From positions 1 through 64,000 of the forward strand of contig JAUCBJ010003342.1 of assembly GCA_032718475.1 (NCBI GenBank): DNA of 64,000 nt, read 5' to 3'. A program made the position numbers and the translations under genes. The first letter of the stretch is position 1, and each line of letters starts with the position of its first letter. This DNA is from Nemertoderma westbladi (lineage: Eukaryota; Animalia; Xenacoelomorpha). The notes below the pieces were generated by a model. It was given only the letters and a program-made list of their open reading frames with translations. It was not told where the DNA came from and did no database searches. Shown here piece by piece: positions 315-33,889 of the stretch.

Positions 315-476
315 CTAAGCCCTTGGGACGGACAGTGGAGTGGCTCGCGGTTATCGTTGTCGTTGTGTAGCTACATCGTTGGCGAAAAACACAGCGACGA
401 CGGTACATCGGCGCTGAGGACCTTGCACTGTCCGGGGGCCGTGAGGGGTAGGCAGCGACACCCGCTAGCCTAATTA
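315..476 (+). ncRNA. Putative structured RNA element, copy 1 (function unknown)
   Basis: Homologous to 22651-22815 while the flanks diverge. Nested stems CGGACAGTG/CACTGTCCG and GTTGTCGTTGTGT/ACACAGCGACGAC, plus a 3' pseudoknot candidate GGGT/ACCC + TAGGC/GCCTA. Confidence 0.55.
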
Positions 477-9967: not shown

Positions 9968-11139
9968 TGTAAAAGCTTTTGCGGATATAACCAGTCATTT
10001 TTCTCCGCAATGAACTGTTTAGTTGTTTTAGCGGACATAACAAGCCATTTTCTCCACAATGTACCCTGTAGGTGTTTTAGCAGACATAACAAGCCATTTT
10101 ATGCCGCAATACGCCAAATACTCTAAATAGAGTGTAGTTCAGATGACGAAATCTGTCAGCTGATTTACTGTCGATGTGGAACTTTCTTTGTTCGGCTCGC
10201 TCGACCAATCAGAGCGATTTTCATTTTATTTTGCACAGAGGCCTACGGAAAACCACGCAATGCATGACGGTCTTTGTTTACCTTTCTGAGCGAGAACAAC
10301 TGCTTGGAAATTATTCTGTGCTTCTGTGTTAGAAGTTTCAGACTTTGGCCAACATTAGACGGCTTTGATTATAAAAACGTAAATCTATTAACTGGCCGGG
10401 ATCTCTGCATCACCTGGCAAACCAAACTCTGCATTCACGCAATCCTATTCACCACATTATTTTACTGCTATTTACTGTCGGTTATTAATTGTACATGTTG
10501 ATGGATATGTTGTTATATTTGGAGAATATCGATAAATAATCATAAAACCCCAATCTTCTTGATTACTAAAGGTTAGAGAGACCGGTTACTGGTAGCAATT
10601 GCGACTTACATTACAGTGGTTTTATTAAATGCTATTTCATAATCCCTACATGTGTCAGTTGCTATCCTCCTTATATATGATCAAATTCAGTGACGGTCGG
10701 CAGATCAGTGTGCAGCAGTGTGCAGCAGTGTGAAGTCGTATGCAGCAGTGTGACAGATAATAAAGCATCTCCTAAAGAATGCGCCATTTACTAAAATCAA
10801 TAGCCATCTCGTTGTGTTTAGTATAAGTCATAACTCTGTTTTATACTTAAAGCGCCACGTCCTAAAGGAACTGTTAATATTTCCTCGAAAGTGAATAATA
10901 TTGTCAGAGATTATATAGTAACTATCAATCGAATAATACCGTAGGTCTGCACCGCAATCCCTTCAAAGCATCCGAATCCAGTCTCCCTTAACCGTGGGTG
11001 AATGATCGCGCATGTTACTTCATGTTACTAATGTTACTTCATGTGCATTAAATAATTATTATAGGCTAAAGTCGATTTATAAACAAGAGGATACCTAAAA
11101 TTGGCAGGTTAAACTGCTAAAGGTCTGAAAGCGTGAACA
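9968..11139 (+). repeat. BEL-B 5' LTR
   Basis: Near-identical to 27035-28202. Confidence 0.96.
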
Positions 11140-13040
11140 ATAATAGATTTTTTGTTTTGATTGCACGTAGGCAATAAATTCGACTGTACCGGTCGGACGG
11201 TAACCTGTAGGCCTAACTACCTAACCACCCGAACCGGTACTTACCGGTACCAGTATTATTTCGATTGTGATATTGTATATTGGTAGGCTGTTTAAGAGAT
11301 TAGGGACTGTATACCCCTTGTTTCTTTTAGAGCTTATTTATTTCTGTCAGTTTTATTTATTTGTAAGTGTAATATTGAGCAGAAGGCGTGTAAGCCCACT
11401 CAAATTGTACAAATAATTTGTAGGCTGGATTGTTGTCTGACTGTTGTTGAGTCTGAAGAGATTGCAGTGTGTGTAGAGTGTATGTCCGATAAAGTACTAG
11501 TTAGGAAGATGGGGGCATCCAGTGCTGTAAGGTAAAACCCCCCCCGAAAGAATAAGTTGTACTACTCAGTTAGAACGCATACTAACTAACAATTTCGGAG
11601 TCTGCATATACTGTAGTTTATTTAGGCTTGATAGTGGTCTGCCAGCGTTTGGTTTGTATTTTGTTTGTGTAGTCTGTACGGGTAGCGTATTTATTTATTA
11701 GTCAGAGTATATGCAAGTATTCGCAACATACATAACTCCCCAAGTTTATTCCTACAGTAATTGTGCTTGTTATACATACCGTTATAGTTAAATTAACCCC
11801 GGTACTACATCAGGGCTGCTTGGCGTAGGTAAAGACTGGTGATTTTATGCTCTAGTCACTCCAGCAGATACCGTGGTTCTTTTAGCTGTACAAGTATTTT
11901 TAACTGCTGGTTATTTGTTGTATAAGTACTTGTACCTAATTTAGGGTTTAGTGTACATTACTTTCCGAAGGTAATTAGTGTGTAGGCAGTATATTTGTGT
12001 TGTAAAGTGGTTAATAGGCACGTTAGCTCTGGTTGGCTGCGGTAATTAACTTCTAGGTAAGAACACTCCGGGTACATAACGTAGTACTTATAGAGCTGTA
12101 CAGCTAAAGACTATAAGTCGTCAGACGGTGGTATTTTCTTATCTGGACAATACAATTTATTTACTACTGCTTAATTATTTTCAAATACCGTAGTATCCTG
12201 TCCGTTGTAATAACCAGAAATTCTAACCCCTTGTTAGGCTGGTTTGTAGATTTCCTGTAAAATTACCCTAAAATTTGTACGTATAATTTTTGTGTTTATT
12301 TAGAGATTATAATCTCACCCAGTAATTGTACGTAATTTGTAGTAATAAGTAACTTAGTCAAGTAGAATTATTTGTTTTAGTGTCCAACAAGTAGCACTTC
12401 ACTGAGAGCATTCAGCTTCGGTGTAGTGACTCCTTACCAGAAATAATAACATTTATTTCAAATATTGTGAAAAACCCATTATAAGGGTATATATATATTA
12501 TAAATCAACTCAAACCGATTTATAAAATAGTAGGCCTGTCATACATCAATTAGGTCTTAATATCAGTTGGACTACTGCGTAATAACAGTAATAAAGTAAA
12601 GAAAGGTAACCCTAAAATTCAGAAATTCAGTTATTATAAAATAATTGACATACCAGTATTTACTATAGGCTTATTATATTTATTTAAATAAATTTATGCT
12701 GAAATTATATACCGGTATTCTGTAATTAATTCTAGGCTATAATTATACTTATATATACTATAAGTGTAAGCCGTATACCGGTATTCACGGTAGGCTTATT
12801 ATATATTTATATATATTTATGCTGAAATTATATACCGGTATTCTGTGACAAACCCTAGTCTGTAATAATACTTATATATATACTATAAGTGTATACCGGT
12901 ATTCTAATATATTATATATATATCGCGTTACATTGAGTAATGATATCGGTAATTAATTACTAGGCTAACAGTTGATACTGAATTACTAGACTTGCTTTAA
13001 CTGTCATTATAGTAGTAGGCATTCAACTGTACAATCAAAC

Positions 13041-16000
13041 ATGGCTGACACAAAGCAAACTCTGTCAGATAGTCTCCTAGAAACAACAGTCTGCGACTCC
13101 GACAGGAGTACCGAACATTTGAGACCAAAGTTCAAGTCCCCTCCTACTGTAAGAAAAGTCATCCCTTCAGTAGTAGTATCAGACCCTAGGCTAGTAAAGC
13201 ACCGTAGGTCTATCATAGGCACTCGGGCTCAAGTCAAGCGGGACCAAGAGGCAGCTGTTAAACAGCAGCAACACTCGAACCGAGAACTTATTTCTCAGCG
13301 GCCCGATAGCTCCAGTAGTTCAGATACTGTAGAGTTGACACCCGAGCGCAGAGCAAAGATGGCAGATGCAGTTTATTCGGATCCACTTCTCATTCTTCCT
13401 GAAGCCGTACTCACTAGGGTAGTGATTGTGGTGGAGGAACATCAAATCGATTGGGCGAGAAGTAAGCGATCGACCAAGGACAGTTATGCGGGATACACAA
13501 TAGAAGAACTAAAGTCTATTGTCGAGACGCAATGGAACTTCCCCGGACCCGGACTCCCGTTTAACTTATCAGAAGCTGCCTGGGAAGATTTATACAGGAT
13601 GGGAGTGGTGAAGGACACTAGAGATCCAGCTGTGGGGAAGAGGTCGGCAGCCGGATATGTACAGGGATTCTTCAGCTCTTTGGAGCGATTAGAGGAACAA
13701 CTGTTCCAACAACCCCAGGGACCTCAAGAGCAGGGAGAGCTGCTTTATCAAGTTCAAGAACGAATCCTAAGAATCAGACTAATCCTTTCAGCCTTTGAGG
13801 AAGCCTCGAAGAGAAGCCAAGACACGTCGTTGCAAGTTGCCGTAAAGACTTGGTTCCAACGGGTGAGTCTTAAAGTCCAAGGGACGACCCAATGGAAAAT
13901 TCAGCTAACTGAGCGCTCGACCCACGGAGAATCAACAGACGCTACCTTTTCTCAGGTGGAAAGCGAAGCGACATCAGAGAAACCTCAGAAGAAGGACGCC
14001 ATTGACATCTATCTGTCAGACTATCAATGATTTATAGGTGACAAAGAGTTAAGGAGATGGCTAGCTGGACTTCACCCTAATAGTGAGGGAGCCAAATATG
14101 TGCTAGACTCATTAGATGCAGAAAGGTTAGCAGCGAATTGAGCTAAATTTGATGAAAGAATCCGCATCGTTAGGGTCCAAGAAGAACAGCTAAAGAAAAA
14201 ACAGATAGAAGACAGACAGGAAGCAGCAGCGGCAGCAGCAGCTGCAGAAGCGGAAAGAAAAGCGACAGCAGCAGCTGCAGAAGCGGAAAGAAAAGCGGCA
14301 GAGGCGGAAAGAAAAGCGGCAGAGGCGGAAAGAAAAGCGATAGCAGTAGCTGCAGAAGTGGAAAGAAAGGTGGCAGTGGCGGTGGCGGAAACAAAACGGA
14401 GGGCATCTGAAGAGGCAACCCAACTAGAGTTGGAAAATCTTCAAGAGAAGCAAGACTACTTAAATAAACAGATAATAGCTAGTGATATGCAGATGATAAG
14501 TCGAGCTACTCCCAAGAGACAGGTATTTACATCATCTGATGAAGGCAGTACGACAGATCCTGAAGGTGGAGGAAATAGATCTCGTTACTACAGATGTAGA
14601 AGAACGCCCCACCGTCAGCAATTGCATAATTTGCCTCCAGCCGTGAGAAGGCAACTAGCTAGTGTAGATCTAAGTAATCCTGAGCCTTCAGATCAAATTA
14701 TTAGAGTAGAAAGACTCCCTACCATAGTAGATGAGCCTGAAATAATTAGGCCTGTTCTCAAAGCCACCCCTTCTGTGATAGAGACACCTGTACTTCCAGA
14801 ACCTACCTCTAAATTCCCTTTGCACAGTACTAAATTACCTGTGCCCAATAGAATAGCCGCAGAAACAGTCCCAGTCTTGGACGCCGAGCGAGACATCAAC
14901 GATTTATCGCCCGTCGTCCCTCGTCTACCCGCTACTATGTTGGCGGCTCCCGCTTCAGCGGTCGAGTGGGTGGATGAGGGACGGCGGGGATGGATCTCCT
15001 GCTCGGACAATTGGAGGAACAGCGCCTAGATACCTCCCAGCACATCCGAGAAATGGAAGGGACTGTGCAGCAGTTAAAGGGAACAGTAAGAGAGGGTAGG
15101 TTAGAACTGCAAGAAGTGCAGCAGAGTATCGCGTTAGAACGCGATAAATTAGTAAATATACAAAGGGGTATAACACCACCCCCTATAACAATGTGTCAAC
15201 CTGTTAGGTCTGAAGTATTTCATGCGCAAGGTGTGGAGCCTACACGCATCTATACTGCTAGTGAAGTAGAAACTCCTATAGTAAACCCTATTAAGGGTAC
15301 GATAAACCTGTTGATAATGATATTCCATATAGACCTGATCATAATCCGAGAAATTTATATACCGATAACTTGATATTAAATAATACGATGGCCCAAGAAA
15401 GTTTTACGCGTCAAATGGCTAGAACCGAAGCCCGTCAAGCGGTAAAGGTGGGAGAGATCGTCAAGTTCAACGGAGATGAGATGAAATGGTTACCTTTTTT
15501 ATGAATATTATAAAGATAACATACAGAACTCTGTGCTATCTAATGGAGAGAAACTTAGATTCCTCATCGAGTGCTTGGAAGGATCTCCCAAGTTAATGGC
15601 GTTAAAGTTTATTGGACATCCAGATGGATTAAGACAAGTTTGGGATACACTAAACATCAGGTATGGTAATAGGAATAACATAGCTAGGTATTTGTATGCG
15701 AAATTGGTAGCGCCACGAAAGTTTCTTAGCAGCGGGATTATAGAATTTTCCGATGAGATCCAGGAGATTTGTAGACAATTAGATTGGCTAGGTAAGTCTC
15801 ATGAATATCAGAGTTCTATGGTTATTGGAGCTGTAGCATCTACCTTGCCAAAGGGTGGAGTAGGTACTCGTTGGGACAAAAGAGTTCTATATATGATGGA
15901 ACAACAACAAAGAGACCCTACCATGGCTGATCTCATGTCATTCTTAGATGGAGAGGTAAAATTACAGCTCCTAAAGCATTCCAGAGAGAAGACACTGGAA

Positions 16001-16779
16001 AATAAGGTAAGTGAAAAACCCGTTTCTAGGAGAAAGGTAACACCAGTGTGTTGTACAGACGACGGAGAAAGCCAGACCTCTCAAGAGGAGAACAACGGGA
16101 AAGACACCGAAAGATCTTACTATGTCAACAAAGCACCTAAAGACGTAAGTAAATTTAAGTCTCGAACCAGTGACAGGAGAGAACAGGTAACAAAACTCCT
16201 CCTACGTCTCCTAAGAGAGTTCATGGAAGAAAGCCCGAGGAAAGAACGAGTGTGCACAACAATACCCAAGGTAAAGTAAGTAACATCAAACCAAAATGTG
16301 CATTGTGCGACGGGCCCCACCGTTTAAGTGTGTGTGATGAATTCTTAAAGAAATCCCTAAAAGATAGACGTGATGTCATGTGGGATAAGCGGTTGTGTTA
16401 TAATTGTCTCAGACAAGGACACCAACGGCGAACCTGTTACTCCGATGCGAGGTGTGCTAAGTGCGGCGCGAAACATCATATCTTGTTGCACACCGAATTT
16501 GAAAGAAACAGCACGAGTCAGGTAAGTGAGTCCGAACTACATGTCCAATTCAGTGATATGAACGACACTGACCAAAGTTCTGAGATGGAAGGATTCTACA
16601 CGGACGAATTCTCCGACGAAAACGAATCCTGTTATTTGATAAACACCGCGGTGTATCGAGCGCTTACGTATGAGACTGAAACCGATAACGAAGCGCACCC
16701 GGTTATTCCTGACCGACAACCATCTTGGAAAGCACCAACTCCAACGTCGGAATCCGGGAATTCCCCGTCGTTCAGCTAA
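13041..16779 (+). pseudogene. BEL-B gag (stops and frameshifts)
   Basis: AEAERKA coiled-coil repeats; KFNGD...W and EKLRFLIECLEG (DUF1759-like Pao Gag); knuckles CALCDGPHRLSVC, CYNCLRQGHQRRTC, CAKCGAKHHILLH. Confidence 0.9.
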
Positions 16780-19700
16780 GAGTCCATGGATTAAGTAAGA
16801 GATTTATAGTCCACGCACTCCTGGACTCCGGCAGCACAGGAACGTTCATCGATAAAGAACTAGCTGAAGACATCTTTGCAGGACAACCCAAGTTCCGAAC
16901 TAAGTTGAACCTTTCAGGAATTATGCAGGTTTGGAAATCTACAGTAGCTACAGACTACTATGTAGGCGCGTTGTCCACTCCCCAAGATGAACTAGGAGAA
17001 CACAGCATAAGGTCAGTAAAAATGGTGGCGATAAAGAACTTTGCTACCAGCCAAGTAGAACCTTACAACTGGGATGAAGACGATTTTACCCAGCAACATA
17101 ATATCCCTAGATTCAACACCGACTACCCAGGGGTGCAAATATTAATCGGCCAAAATGCGCATGAGGCGCTTGAGACATTAGAGAAACGACCTGCTCGACC
17201 GCAACCATTGCAAACCTATGCGGGAAGAACTAGAGTAGGTTGGTACTTCACTGGACCTTCCCGTAGAACGCTCATGGAAAGATTACCCACTGAACAAATC
17301 CATCAGATGAGTGAATGGGAAGAAGAAATCAGTGAGGGAGTAATCACACCTGAGGGAACACCATACTCCTCAGATAACGACGATATTACCCAACTATTTG
17401 ACGAGGAAAATATGATAGACCTCCTCACTGAAAGTGAAGCTTGGAGAAACCAAGTGCACCTTTGCCATCTCGTCTATCATGGCGGACAACTCAACTATGA
17501 CGATGAGCTAAATGAGGTGATAGATCGACATAACACTAAGATTCGCGACGAACACGCCGTACGATTCTTTACTCAAGAAGCTGTAGAGCCTAATTCCTAC
17601 GACAAAGCACTATCGGTCGAGGAGGAAAGAGCCAAGCAGATCCAGGCAACGACTACACGTTTCCTTAGAGATTAAGGGAGGTATGAGATTGGTCTGCCAT
17701 TCCGAAAGCAAGAACCTAATTTTATAAATAACCGACCCTTGACGGATAAAAGAATCGCGCAACTACATCGACGCCTTATGGCAAATGCTTCAGCTAAAGA
17801 GATGTACAAGACACAGCTGAAGAAATTCATCGATAAGGGATATGCGGAGCGAGTACCTGAAGAAACACCCATAACTGAGAGAATGTATTATTTAACCCAT
17901 TATTACGTTCCCAAACCTGGTAAACCCAACAAAGTTCGGGTAGTATTTGACGGCTCCGCCGTTTACATGGGCCAATTCCTTAACTCGGAGTTGTTGCCGG
18001 GACCCAACTTACTCCAATCCTTGTTGGGAATACTCTTAAGATTACGGCAATATTCGATCGCCTTCGCCTCGGATATAGAAGGCATGTTCTTACAAGTTAA
18101 GGCGCTGGAAAGGGATCGAGACAGCCTGCGATTACTGTGGTGGCCTGAAGGAGACCTCAGCCAAAAACCTGTGGAGTACTGGATGACCATCCAGGCTTTC
18201 GGAATCATCTCGAGCCCCTCAAACGCCTGTTCAGTAGTGCGCACCACTGCTGATGACAACCGAGACGCCTTCTCTAAAGCGGTTATCGACAACATCAAAC
18301 GGGATATATACATGGACGATAATTTAAAGTCCCTCCCATTGGTGGAAGAAGCCATTGATGTTGCCAAGGGAACGGTAGAGTGTTTGAAATGTGGTGGATT
18401 TCGACTAATCAAATTCACTAGTAACTCCCGTGAGTTTCAGGGATTGATCCCGGTAGAAGACCGAGGAGTTAAAGACCTGGACCTAATCAAGGACGATCTT
18501 CCAGAAACTAAGACGCTTGGTTTGAAATGGGACACGGAGAGAGATATCCTGTTTTTCCAGCTAAAACAGCGAGATAATCCAGTTCGAACTAAACGGATTT
18601 GTCTAAGTATCCTGAGCACTTATTTCGATCCATTGGGATTTATTAGCCCAGTTATATTGGTTGCTCGGAGTTTAGTTCAACAAATGTGGCTTGAAAACCA
18701 CTCGTGGGACGATCCACTTAAGGGAGAACGACTAAAGAAGTGGATGAAATGGGAAGATTCTCTACCATCCATCGAGAACTTTACGATTTCCCGTTCATAT
18801 TTTGGTCATGTTCTCCCCACGTATTCCTATCAACTCCATGTGTTTGGAGATGCCAGCGATATGGGAATAGGTATAGTAGCCTACCAGAGAGTTGAAACTC
18901 CGGATGGAATTAAAGTCGCCTTGGTTACCTCTAAGGCCTTGATAAACAACAAGCTACGAGTTCCTCGAGCGGAGTTAAAGGCGGCTCTATATGCTACAGC
19001 CATCGGCCGGAATGTCACAGAACAGATGACTATCCACTGGAGAAAACTGTCTATTGGACTGATGCTTTACTCGTTTTGGAGTATATAACCAATGAAGTCT
19101 GTCAGTTCAGCGTCTTCGTTGCCAACAGAGTAGCCGTTATACTTAGTCGCACTAGTGTAGATCAATGGAGACATTGCCCTGGGACAATTAATCCAGCCAA
19201 CATCGCCTCCAGAGGAGCAACTCCTCAAGAACTGGTAGACACTCCAGACTGGTTAGGTGGACCCGACTTCCTAAGTAAAGAAGAAGATGAATGGCCTCCT
19301 CATCTTACCACAGCTGAGATTAGACAAGCCAAGGGAGCGGAGAAAGTCAAACCTAAAACCCGGACGAGTAAATCGAAGTTATTTAAACCCGTGATAGATC
19401 TGTCTGTACTACATATTTCCGGAGACGACGCTGTGGATCTAAACTCCCCCGCCACAAATAAGTCTGTTGTGGAAATCAGAGAGAGAGACTGGAAATCTGG
19501 AACACCAGACGTTTCGCAGGGACTCTCACCTCTCCTACAGAGAGCGATACATCACTATAGCTCCTGGAATCGGCTTTGTAAGGCCATTGTATATTTAAAG
19601 CGATGCTTTCATCATCACTACTCCAGGACGAAGATCGCTAGTGATACCGCTCCACTGACATCTGTGCAGGTCCATGCTATTAAAGATCTTCCCAAATATA

Positions 19701-21146
19701 AAATCTCAGATAGGTTTCTGACGGAGAAGATCAGTTACCAGGAGCATGAAGAAACCAATAAGCAGATACTGAGACTCCTGCAATGCTATGAAGATTCCGA
19801 TAAGTATTTCCTGTTGTTGAGAAATCCACAGATGCGCTTAAGGGATCGTTTCTCTAGCACAATGATAGATGGGTTAATACGTATTGGAGGGAGACTAACT
19901 AATGCTCCATTATCCTTTGACACTAAGTTTCCCATACTCATTAGAAATATTGAAATACAAATCAAGATGATTGTAGATGTTCACAGTAAGCTTTAACCAT
20001 GCTGGTAGAGAACGAGTTCTTAGCGAAATTCGAACTCGCTATTATTTTCATAAACCACGTAGAGCTCTGAACCAAGTTCTTAGGAACTGTATACCCTGTA
20101 GGAAAGCATTCAGTAGGCCTTTAACACAGCGAGAGGCAGAATTACTTAGGGAACGAGTAAGCTTCTATGAACCACCCTTTACTAATACCGGTGTGGATTT
20201 ATTTGGCCCTATTGAAGTATATCGTGCCAGGACTATAGTCAAGCGATGATGTGTCATCTTTGTCTTTATGACTTGTAGAGCAATCCATTTAGATATGGTG
20301 AACGATCTATCTACCAACAGCTTCATACTGAGTCTATGCCGACAGATCACTCGCTTTGGAACTAGCAACACGATGAGATCTGATAAGGGGACGAACTTCA
20401 TTGGCACCAATAATGAGATCAAGGCTTACGTTAGAGATTGGAACCAAAGACAGGTGGACGATCAGCTAAGGGTAACAGCATCTAGCTGGACATTCAACGC
20501 ATAAGAAGCATGAAGACCGCATTTCACTTTATAGTGCCGTGACGCGTGTATCTCACCGACGAACTTTTGCGGACGTTAATGGAAGAAATTGCCACCTATC
20601 TTAACGAAAGACCGCTTATGCCAGTCTCATCGAGTCCCGACTCCCTGGAAGCGCTAACACCCGCGCACTTCCTACTGAAGAAACCTGTAGCAATGCTCCC
20701 ACGATCGGAAATCACGGACGGAGACGAATACTGCCGACAAACTTGGCAACTTATGCGGTTATTATCCCGTCATTTCGCTGACCATTTCGAAAAACATTAT
20801 CTGCCTACGCTACAACTTCGAACCAAGTAGTTTGCGCAGCAAGAAAACGTCAGCGCTGGAGATTATTGTGGAAACAGATCCTCCACGTAAGCGGTGGCAG
20901 ACAGGTCGTATCATCGAGACTCATATCTCAGATGACGGTTTAGGGCGATCGGTAGAACTCGTCGTCATGCGACGTAACTTTAAGAAACCTGGAATTGTAT
21001 TCGAAACACAGCAGCTCAATCGCCCAGTTGGTCGTTTATGTTTACTGGAAAGAGACAGAGAACTGTCCGGAAACTATGGAAGGCAAGATACTCTTCCCAC
21101 GACCACCTCCCTAATCCAACAAACATCTAGGGACTCCCCAACGTAA
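16725..21146 (+). pseudogene. BEL-B pol: protease, RT, RNase H, integrase (disrupted)
   Basis: LLDSGS; KVRVVFD, GPNL, DIEGMF, YMDD; FGDAS, PRAEL, WRHCPG; GVDLFGP, SDKGTNF, LNERPL, LTPAHFL. Confidence 0.95.
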
Positions 21147-22650
21147 TAGCGTCTGGAGTGGGTGTATGACCATATTATTTTATATTCGTTTTTATTATTT
21201 TTATATTTAGGTATGTATTATTATGTAATTTTATAATAATCATTTTCTTTAATTTTATTTAGTAGAATGTTATTTTAGCGATTATTTAGTAGATTAGTGC
21301 AATATATACTCGTGTTTATTACTTAATTACTTATATTATATATTTAGTGCAACGGCGAGAAATAATTCTTTTCTTACTGTCCGTATCATATTATAAATAC
21401 GTGACTACAGTAAGATGAAATGTCCGTACTTATTAAAGTACAATAAAGCTCCTACTATACTCAAGTATTATTGGTAAGTAGAGTATTAGGAATGCAAAGT
21501 TCAGATCCTCGTGTCTCGGCTAAACCAAGCTCTGGGTAGACCTTGGAAACGACTTGCCTCTTCTCACTGACATTGCTTCTTGCAATATTGCTCTCATACC
21601 GTATATTAAATAATACATATAGTAACGTGATGTCCCTTTAACAGTAGCGTACAACGCAAATAAATCTGTTAAACCCTTTGACCATCTGTAATTCTAGTCG
21701 ATTAAGATATCGCGGCACCCACCGACAAAATTCTAGAATCAGTGGTTAACGTCCCCAGACATGTTCTGGAATAAATCGGTGCCCATCTTAAATATTACAT
21801 AGTTAATATTTATAAAAATCTATTAAAACAAATGTTATAATAGAGTAAATGCACGCAAATAAACTCTAAGGAGTTTGTAAACCGAGAAAATCTATAAATC
21901 AAGATCTGTTAAAATTTAGATCCTTTAAAAATTCTAGTCGATTAAGATATCGTAGCACTTACCGATTCTCTTAAAAGGACAAATTTCCTAGAATCAAGGA
22001 TCCTAGTCCCCAGACATGCTCTGGAATAAAATTGTGCCTATTTTAATATTGAATAATAAAATTTACGGGAATAAATTTAAATTCATATCCTTTCATGAAT
22101 TTGATAAATTGTTATTTTATACAATTTATAAAATTCCCAAAATTCAATTAATTAATAGATCATGGGAGCGGAGATTCACCCTATTAAGTATATTAGTGTG
22201 CGAGAATCTCCAATATATAGTCAATAGTCGATAAAATTCATAAAATCATGTATAAAGGGGAATATTGACAATTAAAGAATTACTATTAAATAGCATCCCA
22301 GATCTGTATGCATGAGAATTACCCTAATTCTACTGCTAGCTTTCCATAATGTCACCATAGCAACAACCACGCTAGAATTAGAAGCGAGTTAAAAGAACAA
22401 TAGAAAGCTTGCCCCATTGAATAGCATACGGAATAAATAGCGCACTGCTAGTATCCAAGGATACATAATAATAACGTGGCATTCTGGAAGGTACTTGACT
22501 AACGGACAAATAGCCCGAATGTGTACAATTTGTGACAGTTGTGTGGAGTTTGTGCGTTTATAGGTGAATGTTGCTACTAAAGTGTGTTTACAGTAGCTAG
22601 TCGCAGTTGTGAAAGTAGCCCTAACTCTGCAGTGAGAACCTGAAGTAAAT

Positions 22651-22815
22651 CTAAGCCCTTGGGTCGGACAGTGGAGTGACTCGCGCTGGTTATTATTGTC
22701 GTTGTGTAGCTACTACGTTGGCGATAGACACCACGACAACAGTATATCGGCGCTGAGGATCTTGCGCTGTCCGGGGGCCGTGAGGGGTAGGCAGCGACGC
22801 CCACTAGCCTAATTA
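22651..22815 (+). ncRNA. Putative structured RNA element, copy 2, 37 nt upstream of the ORF2 ATG
   Basis: Same stems as 315-476 with compensatory or wobble changes. Confidence 0.55.
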
Positions 22816-22852
22816 TAATTAATTATAATATTGATAAACTCATATAGCAGCT

Positions 22853-25800
22853 ATGACTGAGTTGATAAAAGATGATCTTGATATCAGGGAGCGATATACC
22901 CTACCATTGCAAGCGTTTGTTGATAGTTTAATACGCGGTGACGCTAGTCCCTCTACAACGGAGGACGATGGCCATTATATCGAACTGCCAATGTCCAAGG
23001 AACAACTCACGCATGAATTGGACTATAGAAAATTAACCGTTCGCTATACGCATCGTAATGGTACGTATATGGACTTCTTAACTACTGGCCATCCTATCGA
23101 TTTACACGATACGGACGATGTAGACACCGAAAGGGAAATGGTTCTCTTTAAATATCATACCCAGCGGAGTCGGAACGATAAACTGAGAATCGAACACGAG
23201 AACTCTATTCGAAACCGACTTGAAAGAGAAGACGTTGAAGAGCCGGATAAACGCAGCGACTTCAACGAATATCTGGAATTCTTCAGAGAAACATATCTCA
23301 ATATTGCCAGCCAACAAAATCTAGAAACTCGATATCCTCAAGGTAAACATCATGATCCTATGATAGAACTCAAACGGCTCTATTTCACTATGATGTACCT
23401 TACCGCCGATCGACCCTACCTGTTGTCCCGGATAGCTTCGAACAGATGGAGGAATATTGTAAAACTGGAGAACGGTCACCCGCGTTTCCTCTACAGGACA
23501 TGCATCTATGGTATTACTGCGATGAATGCCCTAGACCCAACCAACAAACGGAAAGACATAAACATCCGCGGAGACGTTGCGCTAAACACAGTTTTACTCG
23601 CTATACTTACGGGAGTTTCAAGTGAAACTTGTTCGACGTGTCACCTACGATTGCTCGACTCAAACGATCCTTGAATAAACCCATGATCAGAGTTCCGGAA
23701 TACTCGGTCAGACCCCCTCATTCCCTAGTGAGACCTCAAACTCTTGATCCTAATAGTATAATGGATCCTCCTGAACTGTATTCACTATTCAAAGATCTTG
23801 TGTTACCCGAACAATTAATCGGTGGCACTTCGGTAGTGGGCTCGCTAGATATTCGCCCATCCTACCTAGCCGGATTAGGACGCGGACATCTAATATCGCC
23901 GTTCAACCCATACAATCATCCTGGGTTAACCCCAATACAACCCGTCACCGAAGTCGAGGAGAGCGTTGTACGAAACGCGTTAGACACTATTCGACAGAAG
24001 ATTGGAAAAGGAACTTACAATTGTTTGGAGAAATGCAAGTTGCAGCAACAAGTCCAAGCGGTGAAGGAGTTGGCCTTACCCCAGTTCGATCGAGAAATCC
24101 AGAACCTCGAGGAAGACATCGAACTTGGACGAACCTATTCTCTACAAGAGTTTTTAGACGAACGCTTACAACGACAAGCGGAGGAAAATCAGCTCGAGGA
24201 GAAACACATCGAAATGGATGAAAGAGAAGAAGCAGCTTTAGCCCAACCCAAAGCTCAAATCCTTATGACGGATCTCTACTCCAAAACCATCATTCATCCC
24301 TCGATGGTTCCCCATTTCGGAGATAAACTCTTCGCAACGGTACAACCCCAACCAGTTGATATCAACCTACGATCTCGAGATCTTATCGCTGACGCTCCTA
24401 TGTTACAGCGTCATGTCAATCTAACTCAATATTATATGGTAAAACCGGAAGATCCTACACATAGTCTAAGGTTTCTACCACTAATAAATCCTCTCGATCT
24501 TGTCGAACTCGAGCAACTGCAGAAACATCTGGATCAGTTAGTGAAAGTAAACTCATTCCGAAAACCTTACAATTTTTCCAGAATAGAGAAGGATATAATA
24601 CCTCCGTATAATCTCGATGGAATTATCAAAACTCGATTAGTCCACTGGAATCTCGACGTGTTATTTGAGGAGGAGAGAATACAATGATATGGAGATGTAG
24701 AGACGTATACTACACAGTATCTGAAGTATAGGGATCTACCTAACGCTAGCGAATGCGCCACCTTGTGGCATCCAGTGGGGATGACCCTAGAAAACACCAC
24801 TAAGGAGTGGAACGAAACTCTTAACGTTATCGAAATGTATGGAGTTGTCACTTACGATAACGAAGGTAGCGTTCCGGTTGGAGAACTGGGAACTACGCGC
24901 ATGATACATATACGAGGACTAGCTGGTTCTACCCACGTATTTACTCGAGCGTGTTCCGACATGGTTGATTATTCTTTTGAGACACTCACCGAGATACAAA
25001 AGAAACTCCGACATGGACAATTCGAACTCGCGCAGCGTTACGTCACCGACACCGAGCGCAAATTGGCCATGGGTATCGATGGATCGATGTTACCTCAACC
25101 CGTGCTCGAGATGTTGTTTAACGAAAGAATCCTTAAAATCGGCTCAGCTGTTTATGGAGATCTCTAAAACGACTTTAGGAACATGGAGAATATCCCTTAT
25201 CCTTTCGTAGATTCACCTGATTGCTCCCTGGGCAGAAGGCCGAGGTTTCTTCCAAACTACGTATGCCAATACACCCAGCGGCATCAACAAAGTACAACGA
25301 ACCTCCATCGGACATCTTGCCTTTCAAGAATACGGATGGAATTTCAAAGTCGGAAACCCTATCAACTATCAACAAATATATGGAGATCATTATTCTCAAT
25401 TATACTTTGACGGACCATTAACTGCACCTGGCGTCGTGTATAGCTTCATGAGTGTTCCACTTCGTCCCTCATTAGCTATATACACTATCTTCGAAAACGC
25501 CGCACTTGTCGGTTGGCTAGCCGATGTGTGCAGTCGTACTATAAGCGCCCATCCCTTAATACTTGGAACCAAACTCACCAAGCTAGATGAACACAATAAA
25601 TTCATCTGTTTCGAATGCTTCAGGCGCTTTCTGACTCCGTTCCGCAACGTTGATAGTCAGTTCAAGGACCGCACTCTGACCAAGCTCAGCCTAAGAGACT
25701 CAGCTGCTGAGAAGTTAGACAGCGCTGGATTCGCCATTTTCAAGGATGTTTGTATACAGAACTTACATTCCTCTGTTATACAAAGACCTCTAATCCCCAC

Positions 25801-26899
25801 GGGTTATTCTATCGTGGAAGTTCAGACACTGGGTTTGCTTGAGGAGACAGCTACACCTACTTCAGCTATGTAATTGGAAGACGAACCAATATGCTTAGAA
25901 TCCGAGGAGATTCAGCCCACAACACCCCGGAGTAGTGACAACGACTACGTCCTGGAATGGTATCAGGGTCCACAATGTCTCACTGCGTACGACTATCGAC
26001 ACGCCAATTATGTCTCTAGGAAACGTTGTCGATTATGCGCAACTCGAGACCATTTCACTCCTTTAGACTCCAACGTACCCTGCTCCTACTTCCATGAACA
26101 GCCTACTATGGAGATCTATTGTGCGTATTGTAGACTCAATAACCTGCACATTTTCTCAGTCTGCCCCCAATTTATGACTCAATGCCATCATTGTCAGTTT
26201 AAAGGACATGCAAGTTTTGATTGCCCTTTCAACCGCGATCTGGAAAGCGTAGATGAAATGATTACCCTGCGCTACATCCGAGCCTGGGAAGCGAACGCGG
26301 ATTTACATTGTGAGTCACGTCATCGCTATTACCCTGGACGCGCCTACCAAGGAGTTTATGCGTTCCACCCTTATCTATTCGCATCTATTGAACAAAAATC
26401 TCGCACACCGAGTTACGAACTAATAAAGCGTGTTGGTGAGAGTATTTCAACCAAATTTGTTCGTAAATATCTCAGGAACATTAATCCCAACGATCTTAAT
26501 TCCTATAACTTGATCAACTTCATTCGTCAAGATCCGGAATATGGCGATTTGTTCATCAACTCGCATCCAGAGCTACAGGAAGTTCATAGGCGACCCTATG
26601 AATATAGAGCCCGAGAACGCGAGTTAGAAAGAACCATCAAACTGAGGAAATTTCTCACTACTCATGGTCCACCTACCGCTCTCGTGCAAACGACTCGTCA
26701 GGGACCAGTAAGAGCTGCTATACTGAAACGCGCTCTGAAGGTTGTTCGACCTCGCTCCACTGAGGTTGATATCGATCAACAGGGTACCTCGACCGGCGGA
26801 TACACCGACCATAATCCTAAACCTTCTGATGCAATTGTATTGCACCCTTCACCCAGGAGTTATAGCCCTCCTAGTAAAGTGACTCGCACCAAAGAGTAA
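22853..26899 (+). pseudogene. BEL-B accessory ORF2: DEDDy-like exonuclease + 3 CCHC knuckles (fragmented)
   Basis: YDNEG (24853); LPQPVLEMLFNERILKIGSAVYGDL; YTIFE; CRLCATRDH, CAYCRLNNLHIFSVC, CHHCQFKGHASFDC; colinear with BEL-A ORF2. Confidence 0.8.
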
Positions 26900-27034
26900 A
26901 GGACTCTTGCTAGCCTCAAAAAACTACGTAAACGCCGTCTGCGTAAGAAAGACTAACTGTTTAGAGTATTTTTATATTTTAGAAACTGTGATTTTTTATA
27001 TTTTATAGAATTAAATCCCATTTTCTGGGAGCGG

Positions 27035-28202
27035 TGTAAAAGCTTTTGCGGATATAACCAGTCATTTTTCTCCGCAATGAACTGTTTAGTTGTTTTAGTG
27101 GACATAACATGCCATTTTCTCCGCAATGTACCCTGTAGGTGTTTTAGCGGACATAACAAGCCATTTTATGCCGCAATACGCCAAATACTCTAAATAGAGT
27201 GTAGTTCAGATGACGAAATCTGTCAGCTGATTTACTGTCGGTGTGGAACTTTCTTTGTTCGGCTCGCTCGATCAATCAGAGCGATTTTCATTTTATTTTG
27301 CACAGAGGCCTATGGAAAACCGCGCAATGCATGATGGTCTTTGTTTACCTTTCTGAGCGAGAACAACTGCTTGGAAATTATTCTGTGCTTCTGTGTTAGA
27401 AGTTTCAGACTTTGGCCAACAATAGACGGCTTTGATTATAAAAACGTAAATCTATTAACTGGCCGGGATCTCTGCATCACCTGGCAAACCAAACTCTGCA
27501 TTCACGCAATCCTATTCACCGCATTATTTTACTGCTATTTACTGTCGGTTATTAATTGTACATGTTGATGGATATGTTGTTATATTTGGAGAATATCGAT
27601 AAATAATCATAAAACCCCAATCTTCTTGATTACTAAAGGTTAGAGAGACCGGTTACCGGTAGCAATTGCGACTTACATTACAGTGGTTTTAGTGTGCATT
27701 AAATGCTATTTCATAATCCCTACATGTGTCAGTTGCTATCCTCCTTATATATGATCAAATTCAGTGACGGTCGGCAGATCAGTGTGCAGCAGTGTGAAGT
27801 CGTATGCAGCAGTGTGACAGATAATAAAGCATCTCCTAAAGAATGCGCCATTTACTAAAATCAATAGCCATCTTGTTGTGTTTAGTATAAGTCTTAACTC
27901 TGTTTTATACTTAAAGCGCCACGTCCTAAAGGAACTGTTAATATTTCCCCGAAAGTGAATAATATTGTCAGAGATTATATAGTAACTATCAATCAAATAA
28001 TACTGTAGGTCTGCACCGCAATCCCTTCAAAGCATCCGAATCCAGTCTCCCTTAACCGTGGGTGAATGATCGCGCATTGACTGGCTTCGGCTAATGTTAC
28101 TTCATGTGCATTAAATAATTGTTATAGGCTAAAGTCGATTTATAAACAAGAGGACACCTAAAATTGGCAGGTTAAACTGCTAAAGGTCTGAAAGCACGAA
28201 CA
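27035..28202 (+). repeat. BEL-B 3' LTR
   Basis: Copy of 9968-11139, preceded by the PPT and followed by the TSD. Confidence 0.96.
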
Positions 28203-31200
28203 CTTGTTCACCACAGTTTGAAAGTTCCAAGTATTCTTGTTGTCGGGGTGTACCTGTAGAAAGTAGTCCCGCACAACTTTAAATCTGCTATCCAGTGGCA
28301 ATATATCCAGCACCTCCAAAAGTTCGTCGTATTGAGGCATAGCTGACACGTATCCTTCCTTCGACATTATGAGAGGGTTTACGGCCCAAAATCCCAAATG
28401 TGCTCTCATAGGGAAACGGCATCGCTGCGTTGATACATGCTCGTCTGCTAGATTCTCCCAATGGTCGAATAGCTGTCGAACGATTTTAACTGACATGTGC
28501 TCATAGGGGACGTCTCTAAGTTGACATTCGGATGCCCTATGGCCTTTAATATTACAATACGTGCACTGCGGCACGAAACGCCAGCAAGTGTAGAAAGTGT
28601 GCGAATGCTGATCCCCGCACCGGTTGCATACTAAGTCCGGTAGAGATATGTGTTTCGCTCCGCATTTCTTTGCGTGGTGGCCAGTTGCCCCGCATCTGCC
28701 ACAAATAGTGTTGGCAGGATACCAAACTCGCTCATAGATAAGATCTCCGATGGGGCGAGCGCTACCGTCCACGTGATAATTCTCATCATCCGGGTCAGTC
28801 GGTATGTTCGTCTCCGTGGGTTGTACACAAACCATGGCATCGCTTTTCTCCAACTCGCGTATCTCAGTTCGCATCTTCCTCGGAAGGTTCTCCTCTATCT
28901 CTATGAGTTGCCGCAATGGTTCGTCTATTATCGCCAACTCGGTTGAATCCACATCGTTGTGATGGGCGGTAGGCTCGCGAGCCTTCCAGGATCCTTCCGG
29001 GCCTTTGAATTCCGCGTGGCGTTCCCCGTCATAGGGTACTAACGTTAACATCGACGGTCTGTCGACTAGGCTTCCCGCGTGAGTGAGATAGACATCCCAG
29101 AAAATGCTAAGTCCCGCTCGCGTGAAAACTTCGCAGTGCGCATCGGTGTTATAAAAGGGTTGGCGAAATCGTCGGAATACATCAGTATGCGTCCTTCCTC
29201 TGTCGTAAAAGGTATGTCCTTCACCGAGACATAACGGATGTCGCTTTAGGGTCCTAGACACTACATCGGCGATGAAGCAAACGTTGACCGAAGATTCTAT
29301 CGCCAAATAGTATTGCAAGATTATTTGTGGAGGTGAAGTAATCGCCCAGTACACGCAACCTCGCCACTTTAGCTGTGACTCGAACTCGTTTACGCTGGGG
29401 GTATCTCCCTCTCCGTATACGTCCGTGTATTTGCTCCTCTTACTCTCCTTATAATCCCAACTGAACATTAGATATGAGATATAACCCGTCCCAGTTTTTA
29501 GTGTGTTATACTCCCTAAAATATCCTTGCTCAATAGCCCAAAGCAACAATGGTCTAGTATCCATGTATGGCGTAGGCAATCGATCCTCTTCCGTGGGCAT
29601 CCCTGCGAAATCGCTAATAAGGTCATCCCGTACACCGGATCCGATCTTGACAATGCTCTTGTCCAACACAACATCTCGCACGGCCTTTGGTAACATCCTA
29701 GCTTCTATGCTACAAGCCAGGTCCATGGATTTAACTATCCGTTTTATCATCGCGTGTCTTTGCGTCGTTCCTTCCGGCATAGGCATCTTTCTATCGCTCC
29801 TCTGTCGGCTGAAGACATGTAACACGCCATCTTGTGCTCTAATCTGTATAGTCTTCGAAGTGAGGCTTTGCTGATGGCTTCCTCCTTCATTATTGTAAAA
29901 CATGTAACCATTCTCCTTCAGAGATCGGCTAGTCACGTCCCAATCGTCGAGTAAATCGTCGGTAGGGTTCCAAATTCTCCCAATCATCTTTTCATCATCG
30001 AAGCTAATAGGTTTACCGGTCCAATTGGTCCTGATATCGGTGTCGGTCTCAAACTTCCGACTCCGATCCACAATCGAATCGTTTTCGTCAGATACCCTCG
30101 CAAGATGCAAGGTGCGATATCCATCCCCGCACGATCCACTTCCTTAAAGTCCGTAATATGTGGAGGCATGTTGCGTACGATTTTCTGAACTATTGTTCTA
30201 CGCAACTCGGCTGACTCTAACACATCACCATAGGTAACCGATGGGAGGAAATCCAGGTTCGAAATTATCTCTGGGTGTTCAACTATAGGAATCTCATAAG
30301 TTGTCTCCTTCCGGGTCGGTATACTAATAGGAAAGCTAGTTGGTCTTGCAACCGGTACTATCGTTCCAGCAGAATGGGGCTGAGGTTCTCGCGTCATCTC
30401 GACATGAGGTATCTGTAGTCTCTGCGACAAACGCTGAGCAAAGGTGATACTATCGAAGAGCTCGGGTGTCATCTCCTTAGGTTTGGTTTGATCGTGGGAT
30501 ATCCAATAGAATGGTAGGCTCGCGAGCCTTCCGCCTAACTCCTCGATCTCGCCTTTCTCGTACGCCTTGTACGCCCTGTAGAGGCTCAAAGCTTCCCGTT
30601 TCTCTTGCGTCGACTTATTAGACTCATCCACTACCATGCTGTAGACGTCTGGTTCGACTAATTTAGGTTCGTAAATAACGATCTCACCCGCGTTCGGTCC
30701 ACTCATCTTAAATGAATGATACGGATTCGTCAAAGGGTATCCGCCTTCTTGGTAACGTAGACTTTGGTGGTATGAGCATCGCGCTAATATCGGCTCGGGG
30801 TTCTCCGAGTTCAACCGCATAGGAATCGCATTGTCTTGCTCACGCATACATGCTCCACATTTGTAAAACAGTTTGTATATGGAGAACGCGTCCTTTGTCT
30901 CTGGATCTGCTATAAAGATGCATTCCTTCGAATTCGTCTCTGGCTGCAGGTAAGGGTTCATTTACCGTCAAATATTGCAGCATATGATATAATCGGCGTA
31001 TCTCTGTGTCTGGATCCTCACAAATGTCACTAGCGTCGCATAACGCATCGTAAGGATATAACGCATTGAACTCCGCGCGTAATTCCTCCGTTCTTTTGTT
31101 ATAAGCATCCAATCGCTGTTTATTCACATTCGGGTCCGCCTTGGATTTAGCGAGCTTGGCTGTACTCCTAGCCATACTCTCCACTCCAAACACACTAAAG

Positions 31201-31292
31201 TTTTTAGCTCCATAACGATTAAACGGCGCCTGGTGCTCTTGTTCCTGCGTAAACCCCTGACGTAACTCCTTATAAATCTTCTCCGCCATCAT
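28203..31292 (-). pseudogene. BEL-A accessory ORF2, N-terminal and central part: DEDDy-like exonuclease + 3 CCHC knuckles
   Basis: ORFs 31292-30840, 30961-29984 and 30110-28203. YNNEG; LPKAVRDVVLDKSIVKIGSGVRDDL; YLAIE; CGRCGATGHHAKKC, CNRCGDQHSHTFYTC, CTYCNIKGHRASEC. Confidence 0.8.
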
Positions 31293-33889
31293 ATACGCAT
31301 ATATATGGTTACATATCGTTACGTTTCTACTAGATGAAACACAAAATAGAGGTTAGATGTGAGGTGACTTAGAGTTTGTCGGCTTTTGGCTCAACTTTGC
31401 TCTAAAACCCCAACCCATTTGCCTAATGACTTCGGGTTCGCGTGATTTCGCACTGGCTCCTAATCCAAAAAAAAATTGTGCCGATAAAAAACGAATTCCG
31501 GGTAAACTAGCCGCGAGTCTAAAATACTCATCTTTTAATTTCCCAAACTACATTCCCAAAGAAATAATGCAGTCGAGAATTAATTCGGTCTAAATAATAG
31601 TAGACACGACTACGTAGAACAAGGCCGATTTTCTTTTTCCAAAAAAATTTATCGGTAGGCTCGCAAGCCTTCCATCCGCTCTTGTCCTCCCCAATTTTAA
31701 CTTCTATCTAGCTGTATTCTAGAATTCGCATTCACTGGAGAATCATTTTTCTTAAATTTAAATCCAACTAAATGGATTTGTCTAATAATTTTTGAAAATT
31801 GTCTCACTTGTGGGTTCCAAGTGGAATTCCATTCCTACTGTACACACAATCCCGCTCCTATGTGATACATAAGGGTACTACCCTCCATGTTCACATATAA
31901 AGACAATGGAATTCCACTGCTGTCTCTATCTACAGTGAAGAGGATTACAAATGCACATACAGTAATACAAAATACTAAATTACTAAAATATGGTAGGTCT
32001 ATGTGGCGGCCAACAAAGGTCCCACATCTCTATTTACTAATATTGGGTGGAGATTTGTAGTCTCCTGTCTCGTTTCTAGTCTCCTCAAGGAGTACGAGAC
32101 GTTGTACAGGTCTGTCTGCGGTACGTCCGTCGATAGTCCTTACAGTAACTGTCCTTACTACACCAGATGTAGGGTGCGTGGTCAAAATGACTCCAGTCAG
32201 CCAAAACCGTCTTTTCAGATTGGCTTCAGCCAATAAAACATGGTCACCGCGTCTCAAACATCGGGTATCAAGATACCAAGAGGTTCTGGTTGAAATAGAG
32301 GCCAAATAATATTTCTGCCATATTTCCCAGAATTTATTTGCAAGTAATTGAGTGATTTTCCAAGCCTTGTTGCCGTATCCATCGCTATTAACGGCTACCG
32401 AAATGGGCAACAATGTCGTCGGCGCCTGCATAAGCAGGTGCGCTGGTGTCAAGGCAAACTGTGCGTCGTTATTGTCTGGGATCAAAGCGATCGGTCTAGT
32501 GTTTAAAATCGCTTCGATTTCTATTAGTAACGTCGTCAGTTGATCGTCTGTCAATATGTGTTGCGTCGGTATTACTTTAGCCATAGCTGTCTTAATCGAG
32601 CCAATCAGCCTTTCCCAAATGCCGCCTCTCCACGGACTGTCTGGAGTATTAAAATACCAAACAATACGGTGAGGATGTAGTTCCTCGGAAATCTGGTTTT
32701 GGTCCAACTTCTTTAAAGCTCTGGTTATTTTGTTCTGTGCACCCACAAAGTTTGTCCCTTGGTCACAATAAATGGATTTGACCAATCCACATCTAGCGAT
32801 AAATCGCCGTAAGACTAGGATAAAGGCATTGGTGGTTAAATCTGTCACATGCTCTATATGGACAGCTCTGCTGGCCATGCAAGTGAAGATCAATCCCCAA
32901 CGTTTTACCTGTACCCTTCCGCGTTTCGCGATTATGGGTCCAAAACAGTCTATCCCTGTCTCAGTGAAAGGGGGGCTAAATGTCTGAAATCTCGCTAGTG
33001 GTAGTTCACTCATTTCTTGGTGTCCTATCCTCGCGTGCACCTTCTTACAAATCATACAGTTCCATGTTACCGAACTCAGTGCCTTACTAGGTCTAATCAG
33101 TACAAACCTCGATCGTAAGTGTGATAGACAGTGATGTCTACCCACGTGTTTGAGTTGTACATGTGCGTCCAGTATCATAGCGCGCTGTAATTCATGGTGT
33201 TGCGGTATGATGATAGGATACCTAAAGTCTAGTGCAAAGTCGATGTTTTGGAGTCTGGACTTGTGACAAAGTAAGCCCCGGTAAATAATCGGACTCCAAC
33301 TCAAAATCGGTGAAGACTTGATCTATTTACCTTGGTTGATCGCTGTGAACTCTCGTGCGAAATATCGCAATTGATAATGTCTAATGATATCAACTTCACA
33401 ATGACTAACTTCCTTTAAGGTAAGTCTTCTCGGAAAGTCGCGTTTGCCTCTGGCATATTGTCTCAAACGTTTGAGCCATGCTAACTTGCGGCACGCGTCA
33501 GTCCATGATCTAGTTAGGTTCACTATCATGTCAACGTAAGTGTTAGTGACGTCATCAGGTATGGTGTAGTCATAGTGTGGATACTTGTTTGGACTTGGTA
33601 GGCCCGCGGGCCTTCCGGTAGGTTTGTCTGAGTCCCCATGTATGTCAATCTCTACGGTCTTACCTTTACCGTCCGCATCTAGTGAGTCGACTGGCAGTAA
33701 CGGTTTCAACTCTATAGTCTTAGTGTGTTCCTGTGAGCCTGTAAGCTTCCTAACCTTAGTCACACGTTTACCTGTAGGTGGTAAGTCAAGTCTTTGAGCG
33801 GAGTGTGATCGCTGTGGCCACACCTTTGTCGTCCAAAGAAGTCAAATTTGGTAAGTTTCTAAATGTCCGCTCCAATGGGTCTTCTACTG

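Follow-up and report, generated by a model that had tools for sequence, protein, structure and literature searches.

What is the GC-rich island that lies just upstream of the second open reading frame (ORF2) of an LTR retrotransposon in Nemertoderma westbladi, and what might it do there? The stretch of DNA analysed here (64,000 nt, called the window below) is a nest of animal LTR retrotransposons, and the island occurs in it twice, in elements of two unrelated superfamilies. A sequence-only reading had proposed a cis-acting structured RNA tied to ORF2, possibly an IRES or a ribozyme. We find that the RNA is integral to a Bel/Pao family and close to the AUG, which supports the proposed tie to ORF2; membership of a known self-cleaving class is not supported. 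In our view it is very probably a real cis-acting RNA element of retroelements. The features to which we refer are the following.

9968–28202, plus strand: element 1, a complete Bel/Pao LTR retrotransposon, recognized by its LTRs, target-site duplication and domains
22558–22595, plus strand: possible internal promoter, proposed from consensus matches (TTATAGG at 22558, CAGT at 22591)
22651–22812, plus strand: structured RNA, copy A, in the pol–ORF2 spacer of element 1
22813–22852, plus strand: AU-rich linker (17.5% GC), with an in-frame stop at 22835
22853–26899, plus strand: accessory ORF2 of element 1, split into five frames in this copy
315–473, plus strand: structured RNA, copy B, 195 nt upstream of a Gypsy gag ATG (669)
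669–4290, plus strand: Ty3/Gypsy gag-pol downstream of copy B

Element 1 has LTRs that are 96% identical, with TG..CA ends, and is flanked by the target-site duplication CTTGT. Its domains include a Pao peptidase, an RNase H and DUF5641; its pol ends at 21146, and the nearest relatives of this pol (38–43% identity) are, where named, mostly from marine invertebrates. The viral contigs searched contained no relative of either the Pao pol or ORF2. Element 1 is itself nested in the ORF2 of a second, minus-strand Bel/Pao element (element 2). Directly 3′ of the 5′ LTR of element 1 (11140–11200) no TGG-type primer-binding site is visible, and its spacer carries a duplicated AT-rich segment (21690–22065; repeat pair 21690–21812 and 21930–22065) with a strong fold of its own (z of −4.9). 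The window also contains two tandem arrays, one of 38 copies of a 44-nt unit (48800–50468) and one of 14 copies of a 78-nt unit (62918–64000).

ORF2 combines an N-terminal part of orphan sequence with a likely WRN/DEDDy-like exonuclease region and with zinc knuckles. The ORF2 of element 2 (28158–31292, minus strand) is homologous to it (tblastn E = 8.5e-41, 24–32% identity), so that the two divergent Bel/Pao elements carry homologous ORF2s. The exonuclease label is likely on sequence grounds: it derives from an Atlas match (0.91) of the element 2 ORF2 to a WRN-like group with PF01612 on 38% of its members, and from motifs recognized by eye; Pfam, PDB and structure prediction (a fold with a pLDDT of 34, unusable) gave no confirmation. 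A word search with ORF2 returned no homologue, nor did phmmer with its N-terminal 273 residues against 1.84 billion representatives, and this part had no match in Pfam, PDB or the Atlas. The covariance-model scan of both strands of the window finds no such RNA with the homologous ORF2 of element 2, which counts against a general rule for ORF2 expression. The pol–ORF2 spacer of element 2 (31290–32030, minus strand) has a different, multi-hairpin fold (z of −3.0 over 511 nt, locally −4.1) and ends with an acceptor-like pyrimidine tract.

Copy A is 162 nt long, and 142 of the 162 alignment columns are identical in copy B, with a 3-nt gap accounting for the difference in length (blastn: 87% over 171 nt, E = 1.7e-56). 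The homology ends at most a few bases away from where the fold does, the flanks of copy B being unrelated to those of copy A, and the same scan of both strands finds no third copy in the window. The island had been described as GC-rich within an AT-rich spacer, and it has indeed 57% GC, compared with 32% for the spacer and 17.5% for the next 40 nt. Its distance to the ORF2 ATG is 37 nt counted from 22815, as given before, or 40 nt counted from the last base that the copies share, 22812. The RNA is folded, conserved and, in both copies, placed upstream of an ORF. Only 2.7% of placements within the spacer are as near to the AUG. Moreover, the 282 nt upstream of the ORF2 AUG contain no other ATG; this is the longest such gap in the spacer (20 ATGs in 1706 nt), with a probability of about 4% at that rate, and shuffling the same stretch, which was picked after the fact, gives it in 3 of 2000 cases. 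One frame, devoid of ATG, is open across the whole RNA in both copies and closes at a TAA (22810–22812 and 471–473, respectively). Acceptor-like AG motifs are located upstream (22630–22633) and downstream (22845–22850) of copy A.

The fold can be described by the following parts, numbered as in copy A.

22655–22664, plus strand: 5′ strand of the basal helix and the pentamer UGGG(U/A) (22660–22664), with a partner strand at 22782–22786 or 22774–22778
22665–22773, plus strand: long irregular arm made up of a 9-bp helix, a bulged middle, a 17-bp stem and an apical hairpin
22788–22811, plus strand: 3′ hairpin UAGGC-AGCG/CGCU-GCCUA
22785–22788 with 22799–22802 and 22789–22792 with 22807–22810, plus strand: pseudoknot, as an alternative to the 3′ hairpin

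The pair model has 58 pairs, and 97.3% of its 113 cells (copies A and B together) are paired. Four pairings read earlier from the letters recur in it: GGACAGUG with C(A/G)CUGUCC, UUGUCGU with GCGACGA or ACGACAA in the two copies, the GCUA/UGGC hairpin with a variable loop that caps the long arm, and UAGGC/GCCUA in the 3′ hairpin. The predicted fold is well supported in the 9-bp helix (22665–22673/22765–22773, pair probabilities 0.74–1.0), in the long arm and in the 3′ hairpin. Between the copies two pairs are changed on both sides (22679/22760 and 22694/22741), three on one side and three are broken, all of the latter in copy A; the 17 substitutions accordingly comprise four in the two fully compensated pairs, three one-sided, three breaking and seven in loops. 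Sliding the partners lowers the pairing from 97% to 32–51%, and 118 of 500 pair shuffles score as high as the model, a control that is uninformative with two sequences. The fold z-scores are −3.2 for copy A and −4.15 for copy B, and a value of −1.5 results once flanks are included; z alone is not decisive, because other AT-rich stretches of the spacers reach −4.1 to −5.6. The fold energy of either copy is about −70 kcal/mol, and so stable a fold in a leader would block ordinary scanning.

The base of the RNA is ambiguous, with two competing folds. A CCCUU/GAGGG closing stem (22656–22660/22782–22786) had been read as a preserved pairing; we cannot retain it as such, since it is invariant between the copies and has a rival, the helix GCCCU/GGGGC (22655–22659/22774–22778). 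The closing stem has pair probabilities of 0.4–0.8, and the rival is weaker by 1.4–1.6 kcal/mol. The rival helix stacks on the 9-bp helix and leaves 22660–22664 as a 5-nt bulge, which is UGGGA in copy B and UGGGU in copy A; the copy-B letter of this pentamer accounts for 294791 of 294808 of the contig depth in run X1 (the runs are described below). The fold that exposes UGGGA has an ensemble weight of 4–8%, and the pentamer can be unpaired in copy B at a cost of 1.6 kcal/mol. The 3′ pseudoknot claimed earlier fares similarly to the closing stem: both copies are compatible with it and no two-sided change speaks for it. Its GGGU/RCCC helix, taken as a hairpin, has a pair probability of at most 0.003 in a program that cannot score pseudoknots; it overlaps bases of the CCCUU/GAGGG stem, its loop 1 has no bases and a simple 9-pair hairpin competes with it. 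The GCCCU/GGGGC fold leaves GGGU free for the pseudoknot, a combination that fits 98% of the cells. Copies A and B show no two-sided change in either basal helix or in the pseudoknot, and the closing stem and the pseudoknot stay in our model as unproven alternatives.

Other copies of the RNA were compared with both of these using contigs from four runs, X1–X4, which represent three samples at most (X1 = X2). Copy A with both flanks is covered in all four runs, by 2194, 1677, 742 and 20 contigs on 22540–22940. The share of contigs that continue into unlike sequence is 0, 0 and 0.01 in X1–X3 and 0.47 of the 20 contigs in X4; this places the RNA in a high-copy Bel/Pao family rather than among dispersed SINEs. 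Neither dispersed copies with unrelated flanks nor a tRNA-like head or terminal inverted repeats, the hallmarks of a SINE or MITE, characterize it: contigs rarely run on into unlike sequence in X1–X3 and no tRNA was found. The RNA forms a stable core amid indel-rich flanks, and the length of the linker 22813–22852 differs between contigs. Loose ends reveal an ATG within the apical loop and in the linker of some subfamilies. In addition, one contig subfamily lacks 22617–22746 and hence the 5′ 95 nt of the RNA, while keeping the 3′ hairpin and the start of ORF2; the joint has a depth of 558 in X4, and a similar joint of low depth is found in X1–X3.

The alleles of these contigs are unphased and were confronted with folds built without the alleles tested (for 22540–22940, the set is 40 of 101 rows). 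For the copy-A fold, three of 22 alleles are pair-breaking against 7.2 expected (P = 0.01), and for the copy-B fold four of 16 against 5.5 (P = 0.24). The corresponding minus-strand folds are not spared (11 of 22 and 8 of 16 breaking; P of 0.82 and 0.89), and the preference for the plus strand noticed before is borne out, the alleles mostly keeping plus-strand pairing. A model tuned after the alleles had been seen gives three of 33 breaking against 12.5 expected (P = 5e-5), a biased figure. Both alleles of the 22707/22728 pair are present in the contigs. At the base, the five bases 3′ of the GCCCU/GGGGC helix vary among contigs, which fits this fold slightly better than the CCCUU/GAGGG stem; one subfamily has a base change in the middle of the GCCCU/GGGGC helix, with its partner unseen. 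The two G-runs required by the fold that exposes UGGGA carry no allele of at least 5% in the copy-B contig comparison.

Does the RNA belong to a class already described? Among the 4227 Rfam families, copy A has no match at E up to 10 and copy B two weak minus-strand chance matches only; over the whole window nothing reaches the gathering score, and the Infernal comparison suggested earlier thus ends with no family for the RNA. Pattern scans returned 0, 19 and 88 loci in viral contigs, 96 in metagenomes and four in prokaryote genomes, none of them homologous: of these 207 loci, 192 lack a covariance-model match at E up to 0.1, the other 15 were compared by alignment only, and local alignment of the first 115 gave a best score of 49. 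These collections contain few animal contigs and cover animal repeats poorly, which makes this a weak negative; within them, no homologue was found outside N. westbladi. A literature search returned no description of such an RNA in Bel/Pao elements, with most subscription papers, Repbase and Dfam outside its reach.

Copy B has a different neighbourhood, ahead of the gag of an unrelated Gypsy element; the earlier reading mentioned neither this position nor the lack of the RNA at the ORF2 of element 2. Its left flank is uninformative on its original context, because an unrelated LTR has been inserted 10 nt upstream. Positions 1–304, once considered as a leader of the Gypsy element, are in fact the end of this other LTR, of very high copy number, and correspond to the minus-strand start of an LTR akin to that of element 1 (79% over 47 nt). 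On the right side, contigs lose depth past 478, from about 1e5 to about 1e3. Contigs over 478 and 481 have summed depths of 601 and 1581, close to the figures for Gypsy-side contigs, 495–609 and 1612–2079; at 481 none of the contigs covering these positions agrees with the window, and the sites are, in X1, 36–39 letters from the contig end. In X3 and X4 part or all of the Gypsy side of copy B is without contig cover, which we do not take as evidence. If these contigs are taken to span the 3′ end of the RNA and the Gypsy leader, the junction exists in other copies, as the data from this one sample (X1 = X2) suggest. Further downstream, the RT–RNase H region of the Gypsy element is replaced in frame by a minisatellite. 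The latter (2468–2898) has 36 copies of a 12-nt unit, encoding SDIT repeats, and the Gag–protease–integrase frame (952–4290, 1112 residues) stays open.

The reading that we place first, tentatively, is that the RNA is a ribosome-recruiting leader element that would help to start ORF2 without scanning through the fold. It comes first because of the position of the RNA, the ATG-free 282 nt and the AU-rich stretch that follows the fold, and internal initiation at ORF2 is plausible from these sequence features. In this mechanism UGGGA would be exposed at the base of the fold, flanked by two stacked helices, and could pair with the loop of 18S rRNA helix 26, in the manner of the calicivirus TURBS or the domain IIId GGG of HCV-type IRESs. 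Once tethered, the 40S subunit might settle on the AU-rich linker, which is unstructured, and begin translation at the AUG, 40 nt past the 3′ hairpin. As a scaffold, the long arm would be free to drift in sequence, and a Gypsy lineage of the same genome probably took the module into its 5′ leader by recombination. We infer ribosome binding, the carrier transcript and the Gypsy capture. The high-depth subfamily that lacks the 5′ 95 nt (X4, 558) fits an element that is not needed in cis for copying. Against ribosome recruitment weigh the distance of copy B from its AUG, 195 nt, and a 25-codon upstream ORF that lies between copy B and the gag AUG. So do the ATGs that some subfamilies have in the apical loop and the linker, the subfamily with a changed base in the GCCCU/GGGGC helix, the 4–8% ensemble weight of the exposing fold, the UGGGU of copy A, the ORF2 of element 2 that lacks the RNA, and the usual expression of ORF3s by splicing or internal promoters. 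The exposure of UGGGA was noticed after the fact: of 3000 shuffles, 616 contain the pentamer, and 152 (5%) can expose it for no more than 2 kcal/mol. In favour of ribosome recruitment, a TURBS-like helix–UGGG(A/U)–helix layout without a gap on the 3′ side is found at both copies, and a looser version of it at three others of the 260 TGGG(A/T) sites of the window. The G-runs without alleles of at least 5%, next to a variable linker, point the same way.

Known systems offer partial parallels. In TURBS, reinitiation elements of caliciviruses, influenza B and hapaviruses, a ribosome-complementary UGGGA located between helices P1 and P2 pairs with the helix 26 loop, a site shared with HCV-like IRESs (PMC11921876), where it is bound by the GGG of domain IIId (PMC11921876, PMC13034579). 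Here a P1–UGGGA–P2 arrangement with a free pentamer is possible, the fourth P1 pair is C–G in both copies and the RNA lies 5′ of the AUG of a downstream ORF. However, P2 is a much longer arm, there is an additional 3′ hairpin and the host is a retrotransposon; the ORF2 AUG is 74 nt from P1, compared with 12–23 nt in TURBS (PMC11921876), and the base preceding the pentamer is U in both copies, where TURBS have a purine (PMC11921876). Moreover, TURBS do not initiate de novo (PMC11921876) and follow an upstream ORF that ends at −8 to +6 of the AUG, whereas no ATG-started frame reaches this region. Type IV (HCV-like) IRESs, including the compact 3′ IRES of megrivirus E, resemble the RNA as internal elements before a second ORF (PMC13034579), with a GGG able to pair with helix 26 and a possible pseudoknot 5′ of the AUG. 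The RNA differs from them in having no domain II, about half the size and its AUG 41 nt past the last helix; of their core (IIId GGG loop, IIIe, IIIf pseudoknot), the folds show no side hairpin with a GGG loop and Rfam no match. The type 6 (dicistrovirus intergenic) IRESs are similar in size (120–190 nt) and in their intergenic position before ORF2 (PMC13273307, PMC12221177; the word ‘retrotransposon’ is absent from the available text of both). They differ in that the apical loop of our RNA is unpaired with downstream sequence, and no open non-AUG frame follows it directly: stops occur in all frames after the fold, and the in-frame TAA at 22835, before the AUG, excludes a non-AUG start. Finally, the ribosome shunt of CaMV and RTBV also combines a stable stem with an unstructured UA-rich stretch before an ORF (PMC5902531), but its short upstream ORF ends 5–10 nt before the stem (PMC5902531), compared with 50 nt for the nearest one here.

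As regards retroelements, the ORF3s of LTR elements are typically expressed from spliced messages (PMC5408684), the env of Tor elements via internal promoters and splicing (PMC4402516), and IRES sequences are mentioned for some errantiviruses (PMC3383448). The closest parallel to ORF2 is the DEDDy ORF3 of the bdelloid Juno and Vesta elements, an accessory gene that likewise follows pol, ahead of the 3′ LTR, and encodes a likely 3′–5′ exonuclease with Cys/His motifs (PMC5408684). Here, by contrast, the element is Bel/Pao and ORF2 is much longer, whereas theirs come from spliced messages (PMC5408684, in whose available text neither ‘IRES’ nor ‘ribozyme’ occurs). A more specific form of the ribosome-recruiting reading is that a minimal ribosome tether, made of a TURBS-like clamp on helix 26 that no longer depends on termination and is joined to a 3′ pseudoknot, initiates internal ORFs of LTR retrotransposons and moves as a module between the Bel/Pao and Ty3/Gypsy superfamilies; we think it unlikely to be correct in this full form.

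It is possible, if doubtful, that the RNA instead serves the unspliced genomic RNA as a signal for nuclear export, trafficking or packaging, like a CTE, MTE or psi. It would be located in the intron or in the leader of the ORF2 message, and the Gypsy element, here without an RT of its own, would have captured it to gain access to the same particles or pathway. The leader before gag is the usual place of packaging signals, and copy B lies there, at a distance from the AUG that is too great for a simple IRES; this reading accounts for the Gypsy position better than ribosome recruitment. A TAG-CAG just 5′ of the ORF2 ATG is a possible splice acceptor. On the other hand, the closeness to the AUG and the ATG-free stretch are left unexplained, and a cis signal should have been kept by the high-depth X4 subfamily that lacks the 5′ 95 nt, a single contig. 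CTEs have two-fold symmetric loops, and the RNA has neither these nor a match in Rfam. It is nonetheless a long bulged rod of 162 nt, and the MPMV CTE measures 162 bp (PMC11379458); a transport element was gained by recombination between retroviruses (PMC11379458). The MPMV CTE, the MusD MTE and the SERV-K/MER11 element are likewise cis-acting folded RNAs in non-coding internal regions, but they lie near the 3′ LTR of vertebrate elements and do not match in sequence (PMC11379458).

A third explanation, which we regard as unlikely, concerns the 5′ end of a subgenomic ORF2 RNA: the element would generate this end as a self-cleaving ribozyme of a new class, or protect it by blocking 5′–3′ exonucleases. 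The compact fold, the invariant G-rich unpaired bases and the possible pseudoknot would suit such a function, but the pseudoknot has no two-sided change. The hammerhead motifs CUGANGA and GAAA are joined by stem II; CUGANGA is present with no compatible stem II in either copy or strand. A descriptor of the HDV-like core (P1/P3/L3) has no match on the four strands, and no Rfam ribozyme appears at E up to 10. No curated covariance model of the twister, pistol, hatchet, hairpin, group I/II or lariat-capping classes matches, in a comparison that could miss large insertions or permutations. Descriptors and Rfam thus agree with the inspection by eye that had seen no hammerhead, HDV or twister consensus. 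The UAA and GAGGG motifs might suggest a twister, but inspection by eye against the twister consensus speaks against this, the loop-4 motif and P1 being missing. Ribozymes placed directly 5′ of ORFs do aid translation in RNA viruses and non-LTR retrotransposons (PMC13725137), which favours a role of this kind.

The RNA could also regulate splicing to the ORF2 acceptor, or repress the translation of ORF2 in an internally promoted leader until unwound, possibly by the zinc-knuckle ORF2 product; this we hold to be rather improbable. The AG motifs at 22630–22633 and 22845–22850 and the TATA/Inr-like sequences at 22558 and 22591 are in keeping with it, as is the env of Tor elements, made via internal promoters and splicing (PMC4402516). 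These signals are, however, consensus matches only, and the retention of the RNA before the Gypsy gag is not readily explained.

Even less probable is that the fold-back has no function and is carried passively by the element as a relic, with the Gypsy copy arising from a chance recombination. One of the two blind allele tests is indeed non-significant (P = 0.24); the RNA, with 16 alleles of at least 5% per 159 nt, is not depleted in them relative to a neighbouring LTR piece (13 listed per 289 nt); and the collections searched gave no homologue outside N. westbladi. Against this stand the two-sided changes, the strand-specific retention of pairing, the homology that stops near the ends of the fold and the stable core with indel-rich flanks. 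A true TURBS, with termination and reinitiation from a frame through the RNA, is very improbable: the frame is open in both copies and the gap between them is 3 nt, but it has no ATG, its stop is separated from P1 by 31 nt and from the AUG by 40 nt (ranges of 12–24 nt and −8 to +6; PMC11921876), U rather than a purine precedes UGGGA and single-base indels occur in the contigs.

The expression of accessory genes located 3′ of pol in LTR retrotransposons is known for few elements and mainly involves splicing or internal promoters. With a defined 162-nt module, conserved in structure and placed before a Bel/Pao ORF2, a short synthetic RNA is enough to put the question directly to the test. If 18S helix 26 were bound, a strategy like that of caliciviruses and HCV would extend to retrotransposons, and reinitiation elements would be linked to IRESs, a link raised in PMC10275272. 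Whatever its function, the presence of the same RNA in two unrelated superfamilies within one genome would point to regulatory RNA modules that move between retroelements.
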